IMG/VR virus record: IMGVR_UViG_3300008120_000239
Span: 1 to 62,086 of that record
Direction: 5' to 3' (one strand)
DNA from: a virus
Lineage: Duplodnaviria; Caudoviricetes
Length of the DNA stretch: 62,086 bases
Below are positions 40,020 through 61,580 of this stretch, piece after piece. Within the stretch, counting starts at the first letter, position 1, and each line of letters starts with the position of its first letter. The notes beneath the pieces were generated by a model. It saw nothing but the letters and a program-made list of their open reading frames with translations. It was not told the origin of the DNA and searched no databases. The translations under genes were made by a program, and so were the position numbers.

Positions 40020-40054
40020 ACTTACTGCCTCATTTATGGATAATATATTTAACG

Positions 40055-40084
40055 AACCATTCTGTTGAAATCAACGAAATGGTT
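40055..40084. other. Hairpin in the 5' leader of the lysozyme-like gene
   Basis: AACCATT-CT-GTTGA-AA-TCAAC-GA-AATGGTT inverted repeat. Confidence 0.5.
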
Positions 40085-40187
40085 AAAACATATACCGACC
40101 ATGTTTTCAAAGAACTCTATCCCATTAATAATAGGAATGTATAATATACGAAAAATATAAATATAAAACAAATTTTTTTTTTCTTTC

Positions 40188-40326
40188 AGCTATAGCCATA
40201 ATAGCTGCTATTAAATTATTGATCTAACTTATTAGCTTATTTTGATCTAAATTTATATTAGATCTATTAAGATCTTATTAAGCTTAGAGATCTATTAAGA
40301 TCTTAGATCTATTGATCTTATAGATC
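40188..40326. repeat. GATC/AGCT palindrome-dense non-coding array; putative replication origin
   Basis: Nine GATC sites (40221, 40244, 40261, 40271, 40289, 40299, 40306, 40314, 40323) and four AGCT sites in an ORF-free AT-rich tract near the strand switch. Confidence 0.6.
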
Positions 40327-40346
40327 ATAGTGTCTCTGTTGTCCCA

Positions 40347-40381
40347 ACTAATATACGAAATTTTTGTATACGATGCAAGCA
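40347..40381 (-). promoter_or_regulatory. Promoter TGCTTG-N20-TATATTAGT firing into the GATC array
   Basis: Exact motif copy on the minus strand. Confidence 0.75.
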
Positions 40382-48087: not shown

Positions 48088-48313
48088 GACTTTTTTGATG
48101 CTAAGGTGTACCACCTTACCATCTTCAAAAGTCCATCAATTGTCCCTAATGGTTAGGGGGTTTGTAATAGTTTCGGTGATTTTTAAATCTCGTTATGCAA
48201 CTACACAATATTAATTTCATAAATTGTGTCATAGAATCCTCGCTAAGAGACGAAAATGTTTTATGACTATAATTTATGGTGTTTATAAAAAACGATTGAT
48301 AGCGAAGACGCTA
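48088..48313 (+). ncRNA. Candidate multi-stem structured RNA (strand inferred)
   Basis: ORF-free region with five or six nested or adjacent stems; G.U pairs favour the plus strand. Confidence 0.5.
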
Positions 48314-48335
48314 CACGGGTAAAACGGAGTAAATA

Positions 48336-48776
48336 ATGGCATATAAGACCTTAAATAAGAGTGGTAACACTAAAAATGCTTATATTTGGGTAGAAAAGTT
48401 GTTAGAAAAGTTATTTTACGAGTCTAACGGTAAGAGAAATGATGATATAGATGCAACAAAAATAAAAGGTCTATCATCCGCTTCTAAACAATATTTGGCA
48501 CATCTTTATGACCATTTAGAGTCAAATCGTGCAATTTACTTGACAGCGTTCAAGGATCGCTTCAAAAAAACACCCGAAACCGTTGAAGAAAAGATTTTTA
48601 CCATTGCCTCTAACCATTTTGGTGGGTTTGGACGTAATGGATGGGCACAATCTAAAATCACTACACTACCGTTGCCCACCAACGATGTAATAAATGATTT
48701 GATTCGTGTAATGATGGATGGACAACGTAAACAAGAATTAGTAGACTTGGCAAAGAAATTAGGCCTATCGGAGTGA
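48336..48776 (+). CDS. Hypothetical protein
   Basis: GGAG RBS; 146 aa. Confidence 0.65.
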   Translation: MAYKTLNKSGNTKNAYIWVEKLLEKLFYESNGKRNDDIDATKIKGLSSASKQYLAHLYDHLESNRAIYLTAFKDRFKKTPETVEEKIFTIASNHFGGFGRNGWAQSKITTLPLPTNDVINDLIRVMMDGQRKQELVDLAKKLGLSE

Positions 48777-48779
48777 ATA

Positions 48780-48989
48780 ATGGAAGATAACAAGGATATG
48801 ATTACCAAGCATATAATGGTTAACGAGAATATATTTAAAGCACTATACGAACATATTAAAGAATTGGAAGGCATTGGCATTCAAAATCCAATAGAAAATA
48901 TAAAGGGTATGCTTGATTCAATCAAAATAGCAACGCAACTATCAATCGATGATGATGACGACCATCACGGCGATAATGTAGATTTTTAA
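48780..48989 (+). CDS. Hypothetical protein
   Basis: GGAG RBS. Confidence 0.55.
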   Translation: MEDNKDMITKHIMVNENIFKALYEHIKELEGIGIQNPIENIKGMLDSIKIATQLSIDDDDDHHGDNVDF

Positions 48990-49000
48990 TTAGGTGACAC

Positions 49001-49357
49001 ATGAGCAGACCAAAAACAATTATATTAGACATAGATGGCACATTAGTAGAACATGCACCACCAAACGTGGCACAAGGTTATACACACAAAATGGTGTTGT
49101 TGGAAGGTACAATAGAAAAATTAATAGAGTGGGACAGATTAGGTTATAATATAATTCTCCTAACGGGAAGACGTGAAAGCCTAAGACGACAAACAGAACG
49201 TCAATTAGAAGAAGTTGGCATATTCTACGACCAATTGATTATGGGTGTAGGTGGTGGTTGTCGTATCCTTATCAATGATAAGAAACCAACAGGTGAGATA
49301 ACCTCAATAGCGTTTAATCCTGAACGTAATGAAGGTATAAAAGACATTAATGTATAA
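49001..49357 (+). CDS. HAD-superfamily phosphatase-like protein
   Basis: LDIDGTL, LLTGRRE, YDQLIMG, INDK. Confidence 0.85.
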   Translation: MSRPKTIILDIDGTLVEHAPPNVAQGYTHKMVLLEGTIEKLIEWDRLGYNIILLTGRRESLRRQTERQLEEVGIFYDQLIMGVGGGCRILINDKKPTGEITSIAFNPERNEGIKDINV

Positions 49358-49363
49358 TATAAT

Positions 49364-49567
49364 ATGGTGAGAGTTATGGACGAAACAATTATGACAGTGG
49401 AAGAACGATTAGATATATTAGAAAGAAAGCTAAAAATATATGAAGATATGATTAATCACATGAATAATGTTATACGTGATAATCTCATTCAAAAGATAGA
49501 ACAGGTTACAAGAGATATGGTTTCTGAGGGATATGAGAGTACCGCAAAAAATAATGATGGTTTGTAA
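49364..49567 (+). CDS. Small coiled-coil protein
   Basis: MTVEERLDILERKL. Confidence 0.5.
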   Translation: MVRVMDETIMTVEERLDILERKLKIYEDMINHMNNVIRDNLIQKIEQVTRDMVSEGYESTAKNNDGL

Positions 49568-49571
49568 AAAG

Positions 49572-49606
49572 TGCTTGGATCGTATTCCAAAATTCCTTAT
49601 ATTAGT
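49572..49606 (+). promoter_or_regulatory. Promoter TGCTTG-N20-TATATTAGT directly upstream of a hairpin sRNA
   Basis: Exact motif copy. Confidence 0.75.
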
Positions 49607-49611
49607 ACTAT

Positions 49612-49700
49612 AAATTGATAAATGATGAATTCGGCAGATTTGGTAGGACCGCTCCTCCACAACCAACTATCCACCCTACCATTTCTGTCGGTGTTTTTTT
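49612..49700 (+). ncRNA. Candidate hairpin sRNA with C-rich anti-SD loop
   Basis: Stem 49631-49647/49675-49691, 27-nt loop containing CTCCTCC, T7 tract, own promoter. Confidence 0.6.
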
Positions 49701-49716
49701 AAGGTAAAGCTACACT

Positions 49717-49929
49717 ATGAAATTATTTGTAATATTAGAATGGAAGTGGGAAGTAGAAACTACGGTTGAAAGCGACTTCAAAGTATTAGGAATTTTTTCA
49801 GACATAGAGGATGCCCAATTTAATTTGGATAAACTTCAAAGGGACGCCTTAATACGAGAAACACGGGGTTGTTTCTTTTGGATTGAAGAACATAACTTAA
49901 ACGAACTAAAAGAGGGTGTGTCACGATGA
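49717..49929 (+). CDS. Small hypothetical phage protein
   Basis: VLGIFSDIEDA...FWIEEHNL pattern common in small phage ORFs. Confidence 0.55.
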   Translation: MKLFVILEWKWEVETTVESDFKVLGIFSDIEDAQFNLDKLQRDALIRETRGCFFWIEEHNLNELKEGVSR

Positions 49930-50150
49930 ACACAGACTTACTACATCTATACAAAATATACCCAATAGAAGATGAAAAAGATATTATCTTCCTAAATACA
50001 GCAACAATTACAAATATATCAGTAAGTGACACGAATACAAATTGGTCGGAGATTCAAACTACTATCAGAACTAAACCATACGTTGTTGATATGCAGATTG
50101 ATGATTTAGTATCAGATATAAATTTCAAACGTGCAAGGATGGTTAGGTAA
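49926..50150 (+). CDS. Small hypothetical protein
   Basis: Coupled ORF. Confidence 0.55.
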   Translation: MNTDLLHLYKIYPIEDEKDIIFLNTATITNISVSDTNTNWSEIQTTIRTKPYVVDMQIDDLVSDINFKRARMVR

Positions 50151-51019
50151 TGAGTACAAAAGGAATTATTTTAGCAGGAGGACGTGGAACACGTCTCTAT
50201 CCACTCACATCAGTAGTATGCAAGCAATTACTCCCCGTTTATGACAAACCAATGATTTATTATCCCTTAGCTACCCTAATGTTGGGTGGAATTAGAGAAA
50301 TTCTCATTATTTCAACGTCAGAAGACATCCCATTGTTCAAAAAACTGTTAGGAAACGGTGAGCAATTCGGAATTTCTATAGAATATGCCGTTCAAGATGA
50401 ACCAAATGGTATCGCAGAAGCGTTTACAATAGGTAAAGATTTTATTGGAAATAACCAAGTTTGCCTTATTTTAGGTGATAATTTGTTCCATGGCAAGTTA
50501 GATTTCTTACGAAATGCACTACAAACTAACGTTGGTGGTACTGTTTTTGGATATAAAGTGCAAGATCCTGAGAGATATGGTGTAGTTGAGTTCGACGCAC
50601 AAGGTAAAGTTATTTCAATTGAAGAAAAACCTACCAATCCTAAGTCGAGATATGCAATTCCGGGACTTTATATCTTCGATTCCAATGTTTCTTATATTGC
50701 TGAGAATGTTGAACCGAGTGAACGAGGTGAAAAAGAAATAACATCCGTTCAAAATGCTTACCTAAATAGTGGCAAACTACGTGTAGATCTCGGTGGTCGC
50801 CGTATCATTAAAAAAAAAACGGGAACACCCGAATCACTCTTAGAGGCGGGACAGTTCATTAGTGTCATTGAAAGAAGACAGAACATGAAAGTTGCCTGTC
50901 TCGAAGAAATTGCCCTACAAGTTGGTTTTATTTCATTAGAAGAATTTGAGAAGTCTGTGGATATGCTTCCGAATTCATTATACAAAGAATATTGTAAAAA
51001 AATCTTATTAGAAAAGTAA
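50150..51019 (+). CDS. rmlA: Glucose-1-phosphate thymidylyltransferase (contains an adapter artefact)
   Basis: GIILAGGRGTRLYPLT...KQLLPVYDKPMIYYPL, LILGDN, EEKP, RGE.EIT. Confidence 0.95.
   Translation: MSTKGIILAGGRGTRLYPLTSVVCKQLLPVYDKPMIYYPLATLMLGGIREILIISTSEDIPLFKKLLGNGEQFGISIEYAVQDEPNGIAEAFTIGKDFIGNNQVCLILGDNLFHGKLDFLRNALQTNVGGTVFGYKVQDPERYGVVEFDAQGKVISIEEKPTNPKSRYAIPGLYIFDSNVSYIAENVEPSERGEKEITSVQNAYLNSGKLRVDLGGRRIIKKKTGTPESLLEAGQFISVIERRQNMKVACLEEIALQVGFISLEEFEKSVDMLPNSLYKEYCKKILLEK
50781..50819 (+). other. Illumina P5 adapter (reverse complement) plus poly-A; sequencing/assembly artefact
   Basis: GTGTAGATCTCGGTGGTCGCCGTATCATT followed by A10 is the exact reverse complement of AATGATACGGCGACCACCGAGATCTACAC. 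Confidence 0.97.
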
Positions 51020-51031
51020 AGGAGCGGTCAT

Positions 51032-51400
51032 ATGTTTACAGGTGATTTTAGACGTGCCATCGTGCAGTCAGAGTCAAACTCACGTGCAGTGAAAACATAC
51101 TATGGTGAAATCTTTATAATATCCGTTATACTCGGTTTATTATTGGAGAGTTGGTTAGTAGCTGGCCTTTCATTCTTTTTACTTGCAGTAGGAATCAATA
51201 TACCAATCCTAAGTACACTTATTATTCTCGGAATGTGTATTGTATGGGGATTAGGTGGATTTATATTGGGAAGTATCCTAACACCAATGGCGGGTGTGGT
51301 TCTTGGTATAATTTTCTTTCTATGGTCTTTGGCAGTCCATAGGTCTGCAAGAGAATATACTAATGACTTGACAGACCTAAGAGACCGTAGTAGGTTTTAA
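51032..51400 (+). CDS. Multi-TM membrane protein; candidate sRNA target
   Basis: Hydrophobic core; RBS AAGGAGCGGTC. Confidence 0.7.
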   Translation: MFTGDFRRAIVQSESNSRAVKTYYGEIFIISVILGLLLESWLVAGLSFFLLAVGINIPILSTLIILGMCIVWGLGGFILGSILTPMAGVVLGIIFFLWSLAVHRSAREYTNDLTDLRDRSRF

Positions 51401-52632
51401 TCGGTTGTTCCCGTGAAGGGTTCACCAATTTTCCAATTGGAAATAATACTGTCTAACTGTGTAATGTCTTTGATTTCAATGCCACGAAGTTGTGCTATAA
51501 AATCTCTTTCTGACTTGTATAAGTAGAGTGGAATCCCTGCCGTTACTGTGTCTTTTAAAGCATTGTATAACATCTTACGTACTCCACGAACTTGTACGTC
51601 TTCACCATCTAAAGTAACATCAACACGTGTTATGTATGATTTTGCCTTCGGTATGTACATATCACTATGATATATGCGGTCTTCAAACTCGTCATATCTA
51701 TTTTTCTTTATTGCATTACCTTGAAGAGCTGCGAAGTAATCAAATGGTTTTCCTTTGTAATTAGAACTTAACTTGTTACCATCTAATTGAAAACGTACAT
51801 TGAGTGGTCTCATATAATCTTCACGTGATATTCTTGAATAACCTTGAACACGTGTACGTGCAACAGACATGAAGTGTGAATACTTATCGGGATTCACTGC
51901 ATAAGGTTCTAATACGGGATCGGGTAATGGGTTGTCCGCCAATTTAAATTTATCACTTCTCATTATATTTTCAAAGGCAGGTATATTTGTAAAGTGATAT
52001 GCAATAGAAGATATACGTTCATTTATTTTACCTTCTGTTTTGCTAATATCACCCAATCCTTCCATGAATTTATTGAGAATTTCATCCTTATTTTCTTTTG
52101 TAACAACAACTCCACCTGATTCACCGTAATATTTTTGCTTAGTTTCAAAATAACGTAGTTGTATTCCCATTTTAAGACATGCATCCATTATTTCATCAAG
52201 TGGCCATTTTGTCTTTGCAACACACTTATTCGGCCAAAAATCAATAGTTTTTATGTAATCTTTTGCATTTTTAATGTATTGGTCGTCTGAAAATAGTCGG
52301 TCTTCAAACTCATCACGGTCACGTGTGTTTGTGAAGTAAGCAGTTGCACCCCCTTTATACCGTTGTGATAGTCTTACACCGTCTATTTCAACACGTGCAG
52401 ATATACAACGTGCAGACCTTTCGGGAAATCCACCACTACGTATACGAGATAGTGACATATAATATTTTTTGTAGTTAGGTTTATCTTTTGCGGGTGATTC
52501 GTTCTTTGATAACTCAAAGGCATTCTTGTCTAATATACCCCAAAGAGATACTAATGAAGTAAAGTGCCATACTTTATCACTTATACGTTCATTTATTTTC
52601 ATTTCTTTTAATAACTGTGTTAATTTAATCAT
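51397..52632 (-). CDS. Tandem-duplicated ADP-ribosyltransferase-like protein, putatively head-packaged
   Basis: Two repeats, each with HFT...MS.(S/A)R...(I/L)DG..L...YKG...YF...DEFEDR; MIKLTQLLKE leader. Confidence 0.6.
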   Translation of the reverse strand: MIKLTQLLKEMKINERISDKVWHFTSLVSLWGILDKNAFELSKNESPAKDKPNYKKYYMSLSRIRSGGFPERSARCISARVEIDGVRLSQRYKGGATAYFTNTRDRDEFEDRLFSDDQYIKNAKDYIKTIDFWPNKCVAKTKWPLDEIMDACLKMGIQLRYFETKQKYYGESGGVVVTKENKDEILNKFMEGLGDISKTEGKINERISSIAYHFTNIPAFENIMRSDKFKLADNPLPDPVLEPYAVNPDKYSHFMSVARTRVQGYSRISREDYMRPLNVRFQLDGNKLSSNYKGKPFDYFAALQGNAIKKNRYDEFEDRIYHSDMYIPKAKSYITRVDVTLDGEDVQVRGVRKMLYNALKDTVTAGIPLYLYKSERDFIAQLRGIEIKDITQLDSIISNWKIGEPFTGTTD

Positions 52633-53128: not shown

Positions 53129-53163
53129 TGCTTGCATATGTCCTAAAAAATGTTTATATTAGT
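53129..53163 (+). promoter_or_regulatory. Promoter TGCTTG-N20-TATATTAGT
   Basis: Exact copy; the ATG follows within a few nucleotides. Confidence 0.75.
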
Positions 53164-53166
53164 ACC

Positions 53167-54135
53167 ATGAGTGATTTAGTGTGTATAACAGCATATTGCC
53201 CTACAATTGAACAAGAAATTTCATTGGAAAGGTGTGTAGATTCTATATTAAAGTGTGGATTACATATTGCACTAATATCACATACGCATGTACCGATTCA
53301 TATTCAAAAAAAATGCAACTATTACATATACGACCACGAAAATGACATATCAGACGATGTTAGTTTAATGGGATACAGTCACTTTAAACGTGAAGCTTTT
53401 GAAGTAATCTCTAAATATTTTAGTAAATATTTTTATGGATTTGCAATTTATAGAATGTTTGTGATGGCAAGTCAAATTGCTATAAACTTTGGATACAAAA
53501 GATTGCATCACATAGAGTACGACTGTGAATTATTAGATCCAGAAATATTGTTTGAACATGCAAGGTTGTTAGATGAATACGATTCAATTGTATACACTGA
53601 TAATGGAAAAGATGATGGGTTTTTATTTGGCTCATTAAAATCTTTCAAGGTCGAGTCTTTGCCAGAAAAATTTAAATCGTATGACAGGGAATTTATAAAA
53701 GAGGAAATGGTTAAACTCGATAAAAAATATTTAGAATTTTTAACAAAAAAACTTTTTATGAATTCGGGTAAGGTTCTTTTCAAGAACGAAATTGAGTTGT
53801 CCGAAGATAAATTTAAGAAGGGGACACGTTTCTACAATCGAAATCTACATTATACATTGTTTTATGATAACAACAAATCAACATTAAATATTTTCTATAA
53901 ATCGATAAAAGATCATCCAGAAAAAATAAATGTAATCGTTAATGAAAATACTGTTATAACAATAAATACAGAACCAAATCTTTGGTACATTAGAAATTTA
54001 GGTAAATTTGAAGAAATAAATAGTGTACGCATAGATGATTCTAAAAATATTATGTTTGAAACAGTTTTTGATAAAAATAAAAGAAATGAATATAAATTAA
54101 CTTCTTACATAGTGTATTATGAAAAAAATAATTAA
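53167..54135 (+). CDS. GT-A-like glycosyltransferase, paralogue of the middle domain of 2210..4507
   Basis: Shared C..YIY..EN...G(F/Y)A(I/V)Y...A...G.K..H(H/I)..YD pattern. Confidence 0.6.
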   Translation: MSDLVCITAYCPTIEQEISLERCVDSILKCGLHIALISHTHVPIHIQKKCNYYIYDHENDISDDVSLMGYSHFKREAFEVISKYFSKYFYGFAIYRMFVMASQIAINFGYKRLHHIEYDCELLDPEILFEHARLLDEYDSIVYTDNGKDDGFLFGSLKSFKVESLPEKFKSYDREFIKEEMVKLDKKYLEFLTKKLFMNSGKVLFKNEIELSEDKFKKGTRFYNRNLHYTLFYDNNKSTLNIFYKSIKDHPEKINVIVNENTVITINTEPNLWYIRNLGKFEEINSVRIDDSKNIMFETVFDKNKRNEYKLTSYIVYYEKNN

Positions 54136-58744: not shown

Positions 58745-59030
58745 TAACCCCCACAGGGGGTGTTCAAACAAAGGTTTCTCTAGTCAAAAAATTCTGGGGC
58801 CGATAGAAAAAGACACCCCCCGGCACTGCGTAGCCCTACCTAGGGGCGGGGGTTTACAGTTAATAGCCCCACCCCCCCCTCCGGGTCTCAATTACAGTAC
58901 AAATATACACAATTTCCACCACATAAACAAGCACTATTTTTGGGGTGATCAAAATAAAGTGCTTGGAAATTAGGGGTAAATTCCGTATCTTCCCGAACCC
59001 CCCGCGGGGGTATGGGGTGTATGGGAAATA
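58745..59030. other. GC-rich palindromic island; putative genome terminus/packaging or origin-associated site
   Basis: G/C runs and palindromes (CCCCCACAGGGGG, CCCCCGCGGGGG) in an otherwise very AT-rich sequence, next to divergent promoters. Confidence 0.45.
58899..58933 (-). promoter_or_regulatory. Leftward promoter TGCTTG-N20-TATATTTGT
   Basis: Exact copy; no ORF downstream. Confidence 0.75.
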
Positions 59031-59041
59031 AAAAAAATAAT

Positions 59042-59273
59042 TGCTTGGATCTGTTCTCAAAATTGACTATATTTGTACTGTTCTTTGATACAATGACACG
59101 GAATGACAACGGAAACAAGAAAGTTTCCACCAAGTAAAAAAAGTGCTTGGCTATGTGCTCAAAATTACTTATATTTGTTCTATGTTTGAGACATGAGGAA
59201 ACAAGACAGTTTCCACCGAGTAAAAAAAAATAAAAAAGTGCTTGCGTATGTGGTTTGAATTCCGTATATTTGT
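59042..59273 (+). promoter_or_regulatory. Three tandem early promoters (59042-59076, 59144-59178, 59239-59273)
   Basis: Each is TGCTTG-N20-TATATTTGT with an upstream A tract; spacing is about 100 bp. Confidence 0.8.
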
Positions 59274-59309
59274 ATAAGAAAGTTTGACACAACAACATTG
59301 GAGAATGTT

Positions 59310-59420
59310 ATGAGACGAACCTATGAGAGACCCATGCGGTCAAGTGGAGACGGTGCTTTTATGGCCTTTATGTTCTTTGCAATATGGATTGCGGTAGTAG
59401 TAGTATCATACTCACTATAA
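59310..59420 (+). CDS. Small basic-N/TM peptide (36 aa)
   Basis: MRRTYERPMRSSGDGAFMAFMFFAIWIAVVVVSYSL; TTGGAGAATGTT leader. Confidence 0.6.
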   Translation: MRRTYERPMRSSGDGAFMAFMFFAIWIAVVVVSYSL

Positions 59421-59445
59421 TAAAAATACCATAGGAGAATGGGCT

Positions 59446-59823
59446 ATGCTTAAGAAGAACCCAAGATGGATCGAGTTGGATGCCGATAAGGAATTCTTAT
59501 TGAGGATGCTATCCACAAGACAGAGAGACGGTGCTATTATTGCTGAGTTGAATGCTGTTACTGCTGAGTTGGCCAATACACCAATGATGATAGATAGTAA
59601 AAAAGTTAAACCTATCAAGGTTGCTAAGGATAGGACTGTAAAAACACCTAAGGCAGATAAACCGCCGAAAGTGTGGGTGCCGAAGACTATCAAGGATATA
59701 CGGCCACCAAGACCCATGAGGAACTACAAGGCTGTGCTTACGGATGCTAACGATATACAATATAAATTGATTATATCAAGGTTGCGTGGTTGTCCTACAC
59801 ATAGACACTTTCAAGAAATATAA
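59446..59823 (+). CDS. Early hypothetical protein
   Basis: GGAGAATG RBS. Confidence 0.65.
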   Translation: MLKKNPRWIELDADKEFLLRMLSTRQRDGAIIAELNAVTAELANTPMMIDSKKVKPIKVAKDRTVKTPKADKPPKVWVPKTIKDIRPPRPMRNYKAVLTDANDIQYKLIISRLRGCPTHRHFQEI

Positions 59824-59845
59824 TAATACCATAGGAGAATGGCGT

Positions 59846-60010
59846 ATGTATGAAGATGATTTGTATGACATTATGCGGGATGATAGGCGTTGGAATGAGT
59901 CCCTTGATAAGACCTATGATTGCCGTTGTATGTTCGATGATTTTGACGGTATTACAGATATTGAATACCTTGTCAATAACACACGACTTGGCACGAATGT
60001 AAAAAAATAA
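59846..60010 (+). CDS. Small acidic early protein
   Basis: GGAGAATG RBS; MYEDDLYDIM... Confidence 0.6.
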   Translation: MYEDDLYDIMRDDRRWNESLDKTYDCRCMFDDFDGITDIEYLVNNTRLGTNVKK

Positions 60011-60015
60011 TATAG

Positions 60016-60050
60016 TGCTTGCTTAGTATTACAAAAATGATTATATTTGT
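60016..60050 (+). promoter_or_regulatory. Early promoter TGCTTG-N20-TATATTTGT
   Basis: Exact copy. Confidence 0.78.
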
Positions 60051-60071
60051 ACTATCATAACGGAGAATGAT

Positions 60072-60239
60072 ATGGATATATTTGATGCCATCATGGACAT
60101 AGAGTGTAATGATGTAACACAAGAGAGATACATTGAATGCTACCAAACACTAATAGATAGTGGTGTGGTATGGGAACTACAAGGTTCACATGGTAGAACT
60201 GCATCAATGCTAATAGAGGAGGGCTACTGCCATGAGTAA
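60072..60239 (+). CDS. Small early phage protein (55 aa, W.LQG..GR.A..LIE.G family)
   Basis: Manual ORF MDIFDAIMDIE...QTLIDSGVVWELQGSHGRTASMLIEEGYCHE; CGGAGAATGA RBS. Confidence 0.75.
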   Translation: MDIFDAIMDIECNDVTQERYIECYQTLIDSGVVWELQGSHGRTASMLIEEGYCHE

Positions 60240-60420
60240 GGAATGGATTGATAACAATGCCCCATACCTATCACAACGATTGTATGACTTGGCACAAACA
60301 AATAGAAAGTTGAAAGACTACGAAACTGCTTCGCTATTGGCTACACTTGCTACTGACTTATGGGTTGGTAACATGACTGAATACAAATATCAACTACTAT
60401 CTGAATGGTTATCACAATGA
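60232..60420 (+). CDS. Small early protein
   Basis: Coupled ORF; GAGGAGG upstream. Confidence 0.6.
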   Translation: MSKEWIDNNAPYLSQRLYDLAQTNRKLKDYETASLLATLATDLWVGNMTEYKYQLLSEWLSQ

Positions 60421-60524
60421 GAAGAAGATATGTTAGGAGAAGTGGGTTCATTGATAGGACATTGAGTGGGCTGATTCAAGTGGTTATGCTACTGATACTC
60501 ATTAAATGGTTGATAGGCTACTGA
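60417..60524 (+). CDS. Small basic-N/TM peptide (35 aa)
   Basis: MRRRYVRRSGFIDRTLSGLIQVVMLLILIKWLIGY; ATGA coupling to the upstream ORF. Confidence 0.55.
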   Translation: MRRRYVRRSGFIDRTLSGLIQVVMLLILIKWLIGY

Positions 60525-60529
60525 CAATT

Positions 60530-60606
60530 TCATTCTCCGATGAAGGCATGGGCGTACATTGTATTCCCACCCACATTCTCCAACGGTGTGCGTCCATGTC
60601 ATTTTT
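60530..60606 (+). ncRNA. Candidate hairpin sRNA antisense to the GGAGAATG early-gene leader
   Basis: 18-bp stem (60545-60562/60583-60600) with five G.U pairs; 20-nt loop containing ACATTCTCCA; second CATTCTCC at 60531; T tract. Confidence 0.68.
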
Positions 60607-61042
60607 GTATCACAATAGGATATGCTGTGTGCTATATGGAAACAAAACACAACGAAACGGCATTCAGACCATTGGCAGATATTGATACTATTACACATAG
60701 GCTACTATTACTGTGTCTATTCACTATCTCAATATGTGCGGTTATCTACCATTATAGTAAAGATAAAAATGTATTACCTACTGCTAAGGCATTGAATGGC
60801 AATTATTATGTTAATAGTTATTTCAGTAGTAACGAAGTATCATTATGCCCTAAAAGAATTAAGAAAGGGCGTTGGCAGAGATTGAGAATGTATCACGCTT
60901 AATATAGGATATACTATGTTTGATGTAGATGATGATGATATTATATGGGCAATTGTTATACTTGGTAGTGTTATGTTTGCCATTATGAATCCCTTTAGAT
61001 AACTTATAGTATTATTATTATAGATACCGTCAAGGAATTATT

Positions 61043-61192
61043 ATGAAACCGTTTTCAAGAACCGATAGAGGCAGAACCCTAAAGAAGATGTATGACACTT
61101 GGGTATATCTTGGTAAATTTGATTTGGCAAGGCAGACTATGGATGTTATGACAAAGGAATCAAAACAATACTTTGCCTTGCATAAAAAATAA
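61043..61192 (+). CDS. Small early protein (49 aa)
   Basis: Manual ORF MKPFSRTDRGRTLKKMYDTW...; AAGGA RBS. Confidence 0.55.
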   Translation: MKPFSRTDRGRTLKKMYDTWVYLGKFDLARQTMDVMTKESKQYFALHKK

Positions 61193-61227
61193 TGCTTGGC
61201 TATTAGGATTAAATTCATTATATTTGT
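61193..61227 (+). promoter_or_regulatory. Early promoter TGCTTG-N20-TATATTTGT
   Basis: Exact copy; part of a duplicated promoter-leader cassette. Confidence 0.78.
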
Positions 61228-61250
61228 TTAGTATTACATTGGAGAATGTT

Positions 61251-61502
61251 ATGAACGATATTACACTTACCCCACAAACCCCTATTTGCGAGATTGCAGA
61301 GATTATCCGTGAGGATTGGCACCATATTAGTTATAGTGCTGCTCCCTATCTTGATGCAATGGATGAATTATACACTCTTGATGATGTGTATGGTTATGAT
61401 GATGCAAAATCTATTATCCTTTATTTCCTATCAAATGCAGGCCATTGGAAAGGTGCCCTTGCAAGAGAAGTAAAGGCACACCTGAAATCACTTGTAAAAT
61501 AA
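61251..61502 (+). CDS. Conserved early phage protein (IA..I..DW...A.PYL.AM...YFLSNA..W.G family)
   Basis: Recognisable motif; TTGGAGAATGTT leader. Confidence 0.75.
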   Translation: MNDITLTPQTPICEIAEIIREDWHHISYSAAPYLDAMDELYTLDDVYGYDDAKSIILYFLSNAGHWKGALAREVKAHLKSLVK

Positions 61503-61522
61503 TTTTACATACCGCGATTATT

Positions 61523-61557
61523 TGCTTGGCTATTACATCTAAATTCCTTATATTTGT
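61523..61557 (+). promoter_or_regulatory. Early promoter TGCTTG-N20-TATATTTGT
   Basis: Exact copy. Confidence 0.78.
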
Positions 61558-61580
61558 TTCGTATTACATTGGAGAATGTT

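Follow-up and report, generated by a model that had tools for sequence, protein, structure and literature searches.

What is made from an early phage promoter that is followed by a hairpin and not by a gene? The question is raised by a locus at 49572-49700 on the plus strand of a 62,086-bp linear IMG/VR viral contig (32% G+C, estimated completeness 35%), the whole of which was analysed and is referred to here as the window. The phage carrying this locus is an uncultured freshwater myophage; its baseplate-wedge protein shares 67% identity with the one from Microcystis phage Mel-JY01 (190 kb) and about 44% with the proteins of Flavobacterium phages. Structural genes occupy the minus strand from 1 to 41 kb, and the hairpin locus sits within a plus-strand block of small early-type genes, including rmlC (47227) and rmlA (50150). 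One of the motifs GGAG, GAGG or AGGA precedes the start codon in 40 of 80 phage genes, which, even with gene calls as crude as these, indicates that the phage system uses SD pairing.

Near-identical DNA to 48300-51500 (at least half of sampled words) is present in 19 of the 24 sequencing runs listed, one of which may be the source of the window itself. These runs come from 10 studies, labelled freshwater, lake, plankton, aquatic, aquaculture and, in two cases, fungus metagenome; one metatranscriptome row in the run search had a 0.17 share of words and was counted as no evidence. At the very start of the contig (1-660) dense 9- and 27-nt periodic repeats lie within a long minus-strand frame, and their sequence suggests a three-residue repeat, possibly of a collagen-like fibre protein.

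The promoter at 49572 and its hairpin

The original prediction had placed a consensus promoter at 49572-606, and one is indeed present, an early-type promoter of the form TGCTTG-N20-TATATT (49572-49603, plus strand) in which a -35-like element, TTGGAT (49575-80), is separated by 17 nt from the -10, TATATT (49598-603); an A-run (49566-70) lies just 5' of it. The promoter is moreover one of a repeated family: the window has 13 exact matches where 0.05 would be expected, a count that 0 of 100 shuffles reach, and a relaxed pattern finds 14 copies, every one of them intergenic. The motif (TTGGAT, 17 nt, TATATT) is consistent with a sigma-70 layout, and the family also has a conserved T/A-G past the -10, which we take to resemble the Bacteroidota -7 element TAnnTTTG; the assignment to a sigma-70 or a Bacteroidota type is thus ambiguous. 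A start codon lies 6-43 nt past the -10 in eight of the 14 relaxed copies. In the copy at 53129 (53129-53169) the ATG of a 322-aa gene is found 6 nt past the -10, suggesting that this mRNA is leaderless and that transcription begins about 7 nt past the -10, which would put the start from the 49572 copy near 49610. The 49572 copy, by contrast, has 113 nt, including the hairpin, after its -10.

A hairpin in place of an ORF behind this promoter had been predicted, and the longest frame over it is indeed only 30 aa, with a TTG start and no SD, so the element is counted as non-coding. A 78-aa frame on the opposite strand overlaps a 67-aa gene on the plus strand. The hairpin (H1, 49631-49691, 61 nt) would be preceded in the transcript by an A/U-rich, C-free 5' tail of about 20 nt (49610-49630, its start being set by the distance from the -10). 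Eight base pairs, two of them G.U, make up the outer stem (49631-38/49684-91), which is followed by a 2x2 internal loop and an inner stem of 7 bp (49641-47/49675-81) closing an apical loop of 27 nt (49648-49674). This loop is G-poor and C/A-rich (14 C, 8 A, 4 T, 1 G), contains CUCCUCC, and has an unpaired probability of 0.97-1.0 at every position. A U7 tract (49694-49700) lies past the stem by 2 nt (UG). Stems, G.U pairs, loop and T-tract are all as the first reading of the sequence had them. The fold of 49626-49700 has an energy of -22.5 kcal/mol (z -3.37) and 1 of 200 shuffles is as stable, while on a longer stretch of 101 nt z is only -1.87.

With its 15-bp interrupted stem, 2-nt spacer and U7, H1 has the form of an intrinsic terminator, and together with the U7 it lies 63 nt past the stop codon (49565-67) of the upstream operon. 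A consensus terminator scan allowing apical loops of 3-8 nt did not list it, its loop being 27 nt. Such a loop is atypical of efficient terminators, which lowers our confidence in efficient termination here, termination as such being still possible. The size of the loop also sets H1 apart in the window. When the 80 nt before each T-run of at least five were folded on both strands, 208 hairpins were obtained, 12 of which had an energy of -15 kcal/mol or below; among these 12 only H1 and one other, part of an element that we call H2 (60545-60600), have loops longer than 11 nt, those of the other strong T-run hairpins being 3-11 nt.

Its own promoter and the hairpin with U7 delimit, by sequence only, a predicted H1 RNA of about 86-90 nt. 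Rfam covariance models find no match at gathering score in the window, and only chance-level scores in 49400-49800 (E at least 3.4), riboswitches being among the families without a match to H1. The loop resembles what we take to be a conserved cyanobacterial sRNA motif, a likeness that is without Rfam support.

Complementarity of the H1 loop to gene 51032

Two segments of the loop are complementary to one and the same downstream mRNA. Site A, GACCGCTCCT (49647-56), consists of loop nucleotides and the last base of the inner stem, and it is, as had been claimed, the exact 10-nt reverse complement of 51020-51029 (A'). This stretch is the SD region of gene 51032, 3-12 nt upstream of the ATG and directly past the rmlA stop codon. 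Site B, AACCAACTATCCA (49661-73), lies wholly in the loop and is a 12/13 complement of 51144-51156 (B'), codons 38-42 of gene 51032, on the same mRNA and 114 nt downstream of the SD site. The original prediction had noted this second match and held it to be the weaker one because similar partial matches were thought to occur elsewhere; the match stands but the reservation does not, as B' is the sole 12/13 complement of any H1-loop 13-mer on both strands of the 62-kb window, bar the hairpin's own antisense.

Across RBS windows spanning -25 to +6 of 117 candidate starts, the 10-mer at 51032 is the best complement of the H1 loop in the window. RBS complements of at least 10 nt are, however, also found for 77 of 2000 shuffled loops (87 of 2000 if CTCCT stays fixed) and for 7 of the window's 83 natural 29-mers that are C-rich and G-poor, a set that includes H1. 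Taken alone, the anti-SD match is therefore marginal (p about 0.04-0.08) in the comparison with shuffled loops that the original prediction had set for its own refutation and in that with natural controls. The two sites were also scored together, by summing the exact RBS-window run and the best further segment, free of overlap with it, between -30 and +150 of the same gene. On this combined score H1 reaches 22, above all 1000 shuffles (maximum 18) and above the next-best of the 83 natural C-rich 29-mers (19). The score was devised after the data had been seen and is therefore strong but not clean evidence; with both sites counted, and on this post hoc statistic, a complementarity of the H1 loop to the 51032 initiation region beyond chance is supported. 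Common descent offers no explanation for it, since a decayed inverted duplication would give the order B then A, and the order in the loop is A then B.

The predicted A-A' duplex has an energy of -19.0 kcal/mol, or a net -11.2 kcal/mol after the opening costs of both RNAs, and the B-B' duplex has -14.5 kcal/mol, or a net -7.3 kcal/mol. For the 10-bp A-A' helix to form, G49647 has to be freed from the inner stem, which costs 3.4 kcal/mol, and in a closed 27-nt loop the full 23 bp cannot wind unless the stem melts. A ranking by whole-loop duplexes, which favoured genes 57143 and 50150, was rejected, the duplexes being long, loop-ridden and physically implausible for a closed loop.

The putative target gene (51032-51400, plus strand) encodes a protein of 122 aa with about three hydrophobic segments, as read from the sequence, and a charged C-terminal tail. 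It matches phrog_15014 (E 1.6e-12), a family of unknown function, has no Pfam hit and no named family among its Atlas neighbours, and has nine homologues (9 clusters) of 65-100% identity. That the product is holin-like or an otherwise dose-sensitive membrane protein is our guess. Type I toxins are small hydrophobic proteins, usually under 60 aa, and are repressed by antisense RNAs encoded next to them or overlapping them. Compared with type I toxin-antitoxin systems the 122-aa target is larger than typical toxins, and the H1 RNA neither overlaps it nor is divergent from it.

Gene 51032 is the last of an operon at 49717-51400 comprising ORF 49717, ORF 49926, rmlA and 51032. Neither the exact nor the relaxed pattern finds a family promoter between 49700 and 51400, and the operon therefore seems dependent on read-through from the 49572 promoter or from further upstream. 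The SD of 51032 adjoins the rmlA stop codon, so that translational coupling could bypass a block at this site. Within rmlA an A10 homopolymer (50810-50819), encoding IIKKK, could be a slippage-prone site or an assembly error; its position is presumably that of a conserved motif of cellular RmlA proteins.

The sister hairpin at 60.5 kb and other promoter-linked stretches

H2 (60529-60606, plus strand) consists of a small hairpin with a CUCC loop (60529-44), a large hairpin (60545-60600) with an 18-bp stem and a 20-nt G-free loop (60563-82), and a T5 tract (60602-06). Its fold has an energy of -29.9 kcal/mol (z -4.04), and 0 of 200 shuffles are as stable. The upstream ORF ends at 60524. A 120-aa frame overlaps H2, but all seven of its homologues are 88 aa long, which places the start of this downstream gene at 60636 and leaves H2 non-coding; the homologues of the 88-aa gene form 7 clusters with 63-100% identity. 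No Rfam match is found around H2 or in the hub at 58.6-60.7 kb. The original prediction had ascribed the same architecture to both hairpins, and the large loop and T-run are indeed common to them, whereas the promoter directly in front of H1 has no counterpart at H2.

The 8-mer GGAGAATG has six plus-strand copies (59300, 59434, 59834, 60062, 61241 and 61571, spanning 59300-61578), each forming the SD of an early gene (59310, 59446, 59846, 60072, 61251 and 61581, respectively) 4-5 nt before its start codon, and these six are putative targets of H2. Its complement has two plus-strand copies in the window, both within H2, one (60531-38) in the small hairpin 5' of the main stem and the other (60574-81) in the 20-nt loop. 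Over both strands this makes 8 matches against 1.27 expected, and 8 were reached by 0 of 100 shuffles. The 5' tail copy is complementary over 10 nt to the leader of 60072, the gene with which the operon of H2 begins, and the loop copy over 11 nt to the leaders of 59310, 61251 and 61581, so that the flanks of each copy fit different leaders beyond the shared core. The H2 loop match alone is marginal, being reached by 95 of 2000 shuffles; the confinement of both complements to H2, judged on the sequence of the window, is not marginal.

Scanning the window for such hairpins and mapping their loops to start regions, the check proposed in the original prediction, thus returns two large-loop terminator hairpins, H1 and H2, each of which is complementary to SD regions of phage genes close by. 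The broader suggestion made there, of a family of loop-programmed anti-SD sRNAs, gains independent support from the confinement of the GGAGAATG complements to H2.

Further members of the promoter family are followed by non-coding DNA. On the minus strand at 58780-58933 a promoter copy (58933-58902) precedes about 100 nt of structured, G/C-rich sequence (-36.5 kcal/mol over 100 nt) and a T6, with no ORF, and this is a further candidate non-coding RNA, again with no Rfam match. Four promoter copies (58960, 59042, 59144 and 59239) are packed within 350 bp at 58953-59300, and behind two of them there is no ORF, only a GGAAAC-N6-GTTTCC hairpin, then ACCRAGT and an A-run. Over 8 nt, UUUCCACC in this region (58953-59300) is complementary to the SD region of the minus-strand 411-aa gene at 52632, a match that chance can explain. 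Also on the minus strand, at 40020-40381, some 330 nt without an ORF, full of AGATCT-containing repeats and palindromes, separate a promoter copy (40381) from a 168-aa gene.

Proposed function, rival explanations and known systems

We propose that H1 forms a terminator RNA close to its promoter and that the loop of this RNA represses 51032 by antisense pairing with the SD, either in trans or inside the read-through mRNA. We give this reading of the sequence an even chance of being right. The antisense relation between the H1 loop and the 51032 initiation region is, on the complementarity described above, the probable part of it. According to this proposal the early-type promoter (49572-49603) would start an RNA near 49610, in which the 20-nt A/U tail is followed by the 15-bp interrupted hairpin and U7 acting as an intrinsic terminator. 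Initiations ending at the U7 would yield the short RNA of about 86-90 nt, and those reading through H1 would yield the mRNA of the 49717-51400 operon. In vivo, the 5' part of the loop would pair with the SD region of 51032 and the 3' part with codons 38-42 of the same mRNA, and ribosome loading at 51032 would thereby be blocked, whether by the terminated RNA in trans, by the loop of the read-through transcript in cis, or by both.

The same features could be those of a plain intrinsic terminator of the upstream operon, which incidentally truncates initiations from the embedded promoter and whose matches to 51032 are due to chance. Its position, 63 nt past the upstream stop codon, fits such a role, a single anti-SD match occurs in 4% of shuffles and 8% of natural C-rich controls, and the two-site statistic is post hoc. 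Against this, a plain terminator would be expected to resemble the other strong T-run hairpins with their loops of 3-11 nt, and chance would have to account for a unique second site on the same mRNA (a combined score reached by 0 of 1000 shuffles) as well as for H2, of the same design, carrying both complements of the early SD motif. We consider a plain terminator somewhat unlikely. The view that H1 is a purely cis-acting leader or attenuator of the 49717-51400 operon, with factor-regulated read-through, the short RNA as a by-product and the loop perhaps serving as a protein platform or in sequestering the SD of the same molecule, would leave the two-site complementarity to an assumed cis pairing over 1.3 kb. 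No antiterminator pairing is obvious by inspection (as distinct from a systematic search) in the 20-nt C-free 5' tail, nor does H1 match any Rfam family, riboswitches included. This cis-acting role, which we judge unlikely, has in its favour the apparent dependence of the operon on read-through, with no other family promoter in 49700-51400, and the conditional 5'UTR termination described in lytic phages (PMC10914365).

It is also conceivable that H1 is directed at the host, as an anti-SD RNA or sponge whose CUCCUCC loop binds strong host SDs or mimics the 16S 3' end. The presence of CUCCUCC in the loop and of SD-like motifs in 40 of 80 crudely called phage genes would accord with this, but no match found is better than those to gene 51032 of the phage itself. 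Nor do the data point to a particular host, as relatives of the RmlA protein, at 54-60% identity, are spread over many phyla and so give no clue to it, and the promoter type is ambiguous. A host-directed role is very improbable.

Returning to repression of the phage's own genes, the proposal for H1 can be extended to H2, such that terminator-hairpin loops would be programmable anti-SD modules, with H1 directed to 51032 and H2 to the six GGAGAAUG-led early genes, including the first gene of its own operon, bringing about an RNA-only early shut-off that would be a functional analogue of T4 RegB. One structure would then both terminate transcription and silence translation, with the stoichiometry of repressor to target set by the ratio of terminated to read-through RNA. 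We hold this extension tentatively, as possible rather than probable on the sequence features of the two elements. Were it confirmed, a virulent-type phage would time its own translation by antisense loops built into terminators, a compact and re-programmable design with possible use in synthetic biology, and uncultured phage genomes could be searched by a rule, namely for a large G-free terminator loop complementary to nearby SD regions.

C-rich anti-SD motifs occur in RNAIII and the UCCC-loop sRNAs of Staphylococcus aureus. In the same species the UCCCCUG motif of the icaR 3'UTR is unpaired and C-rich, pairs with the SD and acts in cis or in trans (PMC3868564). H1 would be comparable in presenting an unpaired C-rich motif to an SD region, predicted to block ribosome loading, with action in cis or in trans possible; H2 has an icaR-like layout in that it lies at an operon's 3' end and matches the SD of the gene with which that operon starts. 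They differ from icaR in being phage-encoded, in their longer, gene-specific matches of 10-13 nt and in placing the motif in a terminator-like apical loop, and they are known as sequences alone. Pairing at two sites has a precedent in OxyS and fhlA. There the sRNA meets its target at a leader/RBS site and a coding-region site (PMC2946933, whose references include Argaman and Altuvia 2000), and the two-site pairing predicted for H1 would likewise involve RBS and coding region. The contacts of OxyS are made from two stem-loops, however, whereas those of H1 would be made from one 27-nt loop, in which the sites are 4 nt apart, to target sites 114 nt apart. In its predicted action H1 would work like these known RBS-occluding C-rich RNAs, yet it belongs to no Rfam family.

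Among phages, lambda OOP and P22 Sar are short RNAs, each with a promoter and a terminator of its own, and they repress phage genes as cis-antisense RNAs. OOP and Sar are transcribed opposite their targets, whereas H1 and H2 are on the same strand as theirs, 0.5-1.4 kb away. T4 RegB is a protein nuclease that shuts off early mRNAs at GGAG in the SD, and it would be the functional analogue of H2 in that early messages are inactivated via the SD, by a protein in the one case and by an RNA in the other. Closest in architecture are the virulent Pseudomonas phages (phiKZ and others), in which a terminator right after a promoter gives a dominant short RNA and a minority of read-through mRNA, 42 such 5'UTR terminators being described, including that of a 71-nt RNA upstream of PHIKZ221 (PMC10914365). 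H1 has the architecture of a 5'UTR-terminated short RNA of this phiKZ type, without a sequence relationship. The phiKZ short RNAs are transcript-mapped, with no target or mechanism stated in the parts of that paper available here, whereas the target of H1 is a prediction. Phage short RNAs arising from promoter-proximal termination have thus been mapped before without an assigned function, as far as those parts go, and here the sequence proposes both a function and a target. Among the papers listed on phage-encoded sRNAs and anti-SD pairing, none was found to describe such a terminator-loop design.

Relatives of the locus were sought with the exact loop 23-mer and with the proteins of ORF 49717, the 411-aa ORF and 51032, singly and as an alignment. 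In IMG/VR and JGI metagenome contigs only one weak locus (L114) matched, and an H1 homologue is absent from the closest sequenced relatives, Mel-JY01 and three IMG/VR contigs (G001-G003); four further IMG/VR records have no 51032 homologue. That relatives with the locus exist is nevertheless evident from the protein homologues of 51032 and of the 88-aa gene. Mel-JY01 has 0 matches to the promoter motif and no large-loop C-rich terminator hairpins. The promoter family is common to the window and G001-G003, and G001 also shares structural proteins with the window at about 34-78% identity. A scan of IMG/VR with the promoter pattern gave 90 stretches with a single match, mostly at chance level.

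Two of these relatives, G002 (L110; 1692-1920) and G001 (903-970), both on the minus strand, share a conserved non-coding stretch of about 220 nt that ends in a 68-nt hairpin and a T-run and lies downstream of an 88-aa gene behind a promoter of the same family. This hairpin has no anti-SD complement and no Rfam match. On the minus strand of Mel-JY01 (PP395634.1), at 130.4-131.4 kb, three related CTGAAAC...GTTTCAG hairpins with T-runs lie in the intergenic hub from which gene blocks diverge, and they are not unlike the window's GGAAAC...GTTTCC units at 59.1 kb.
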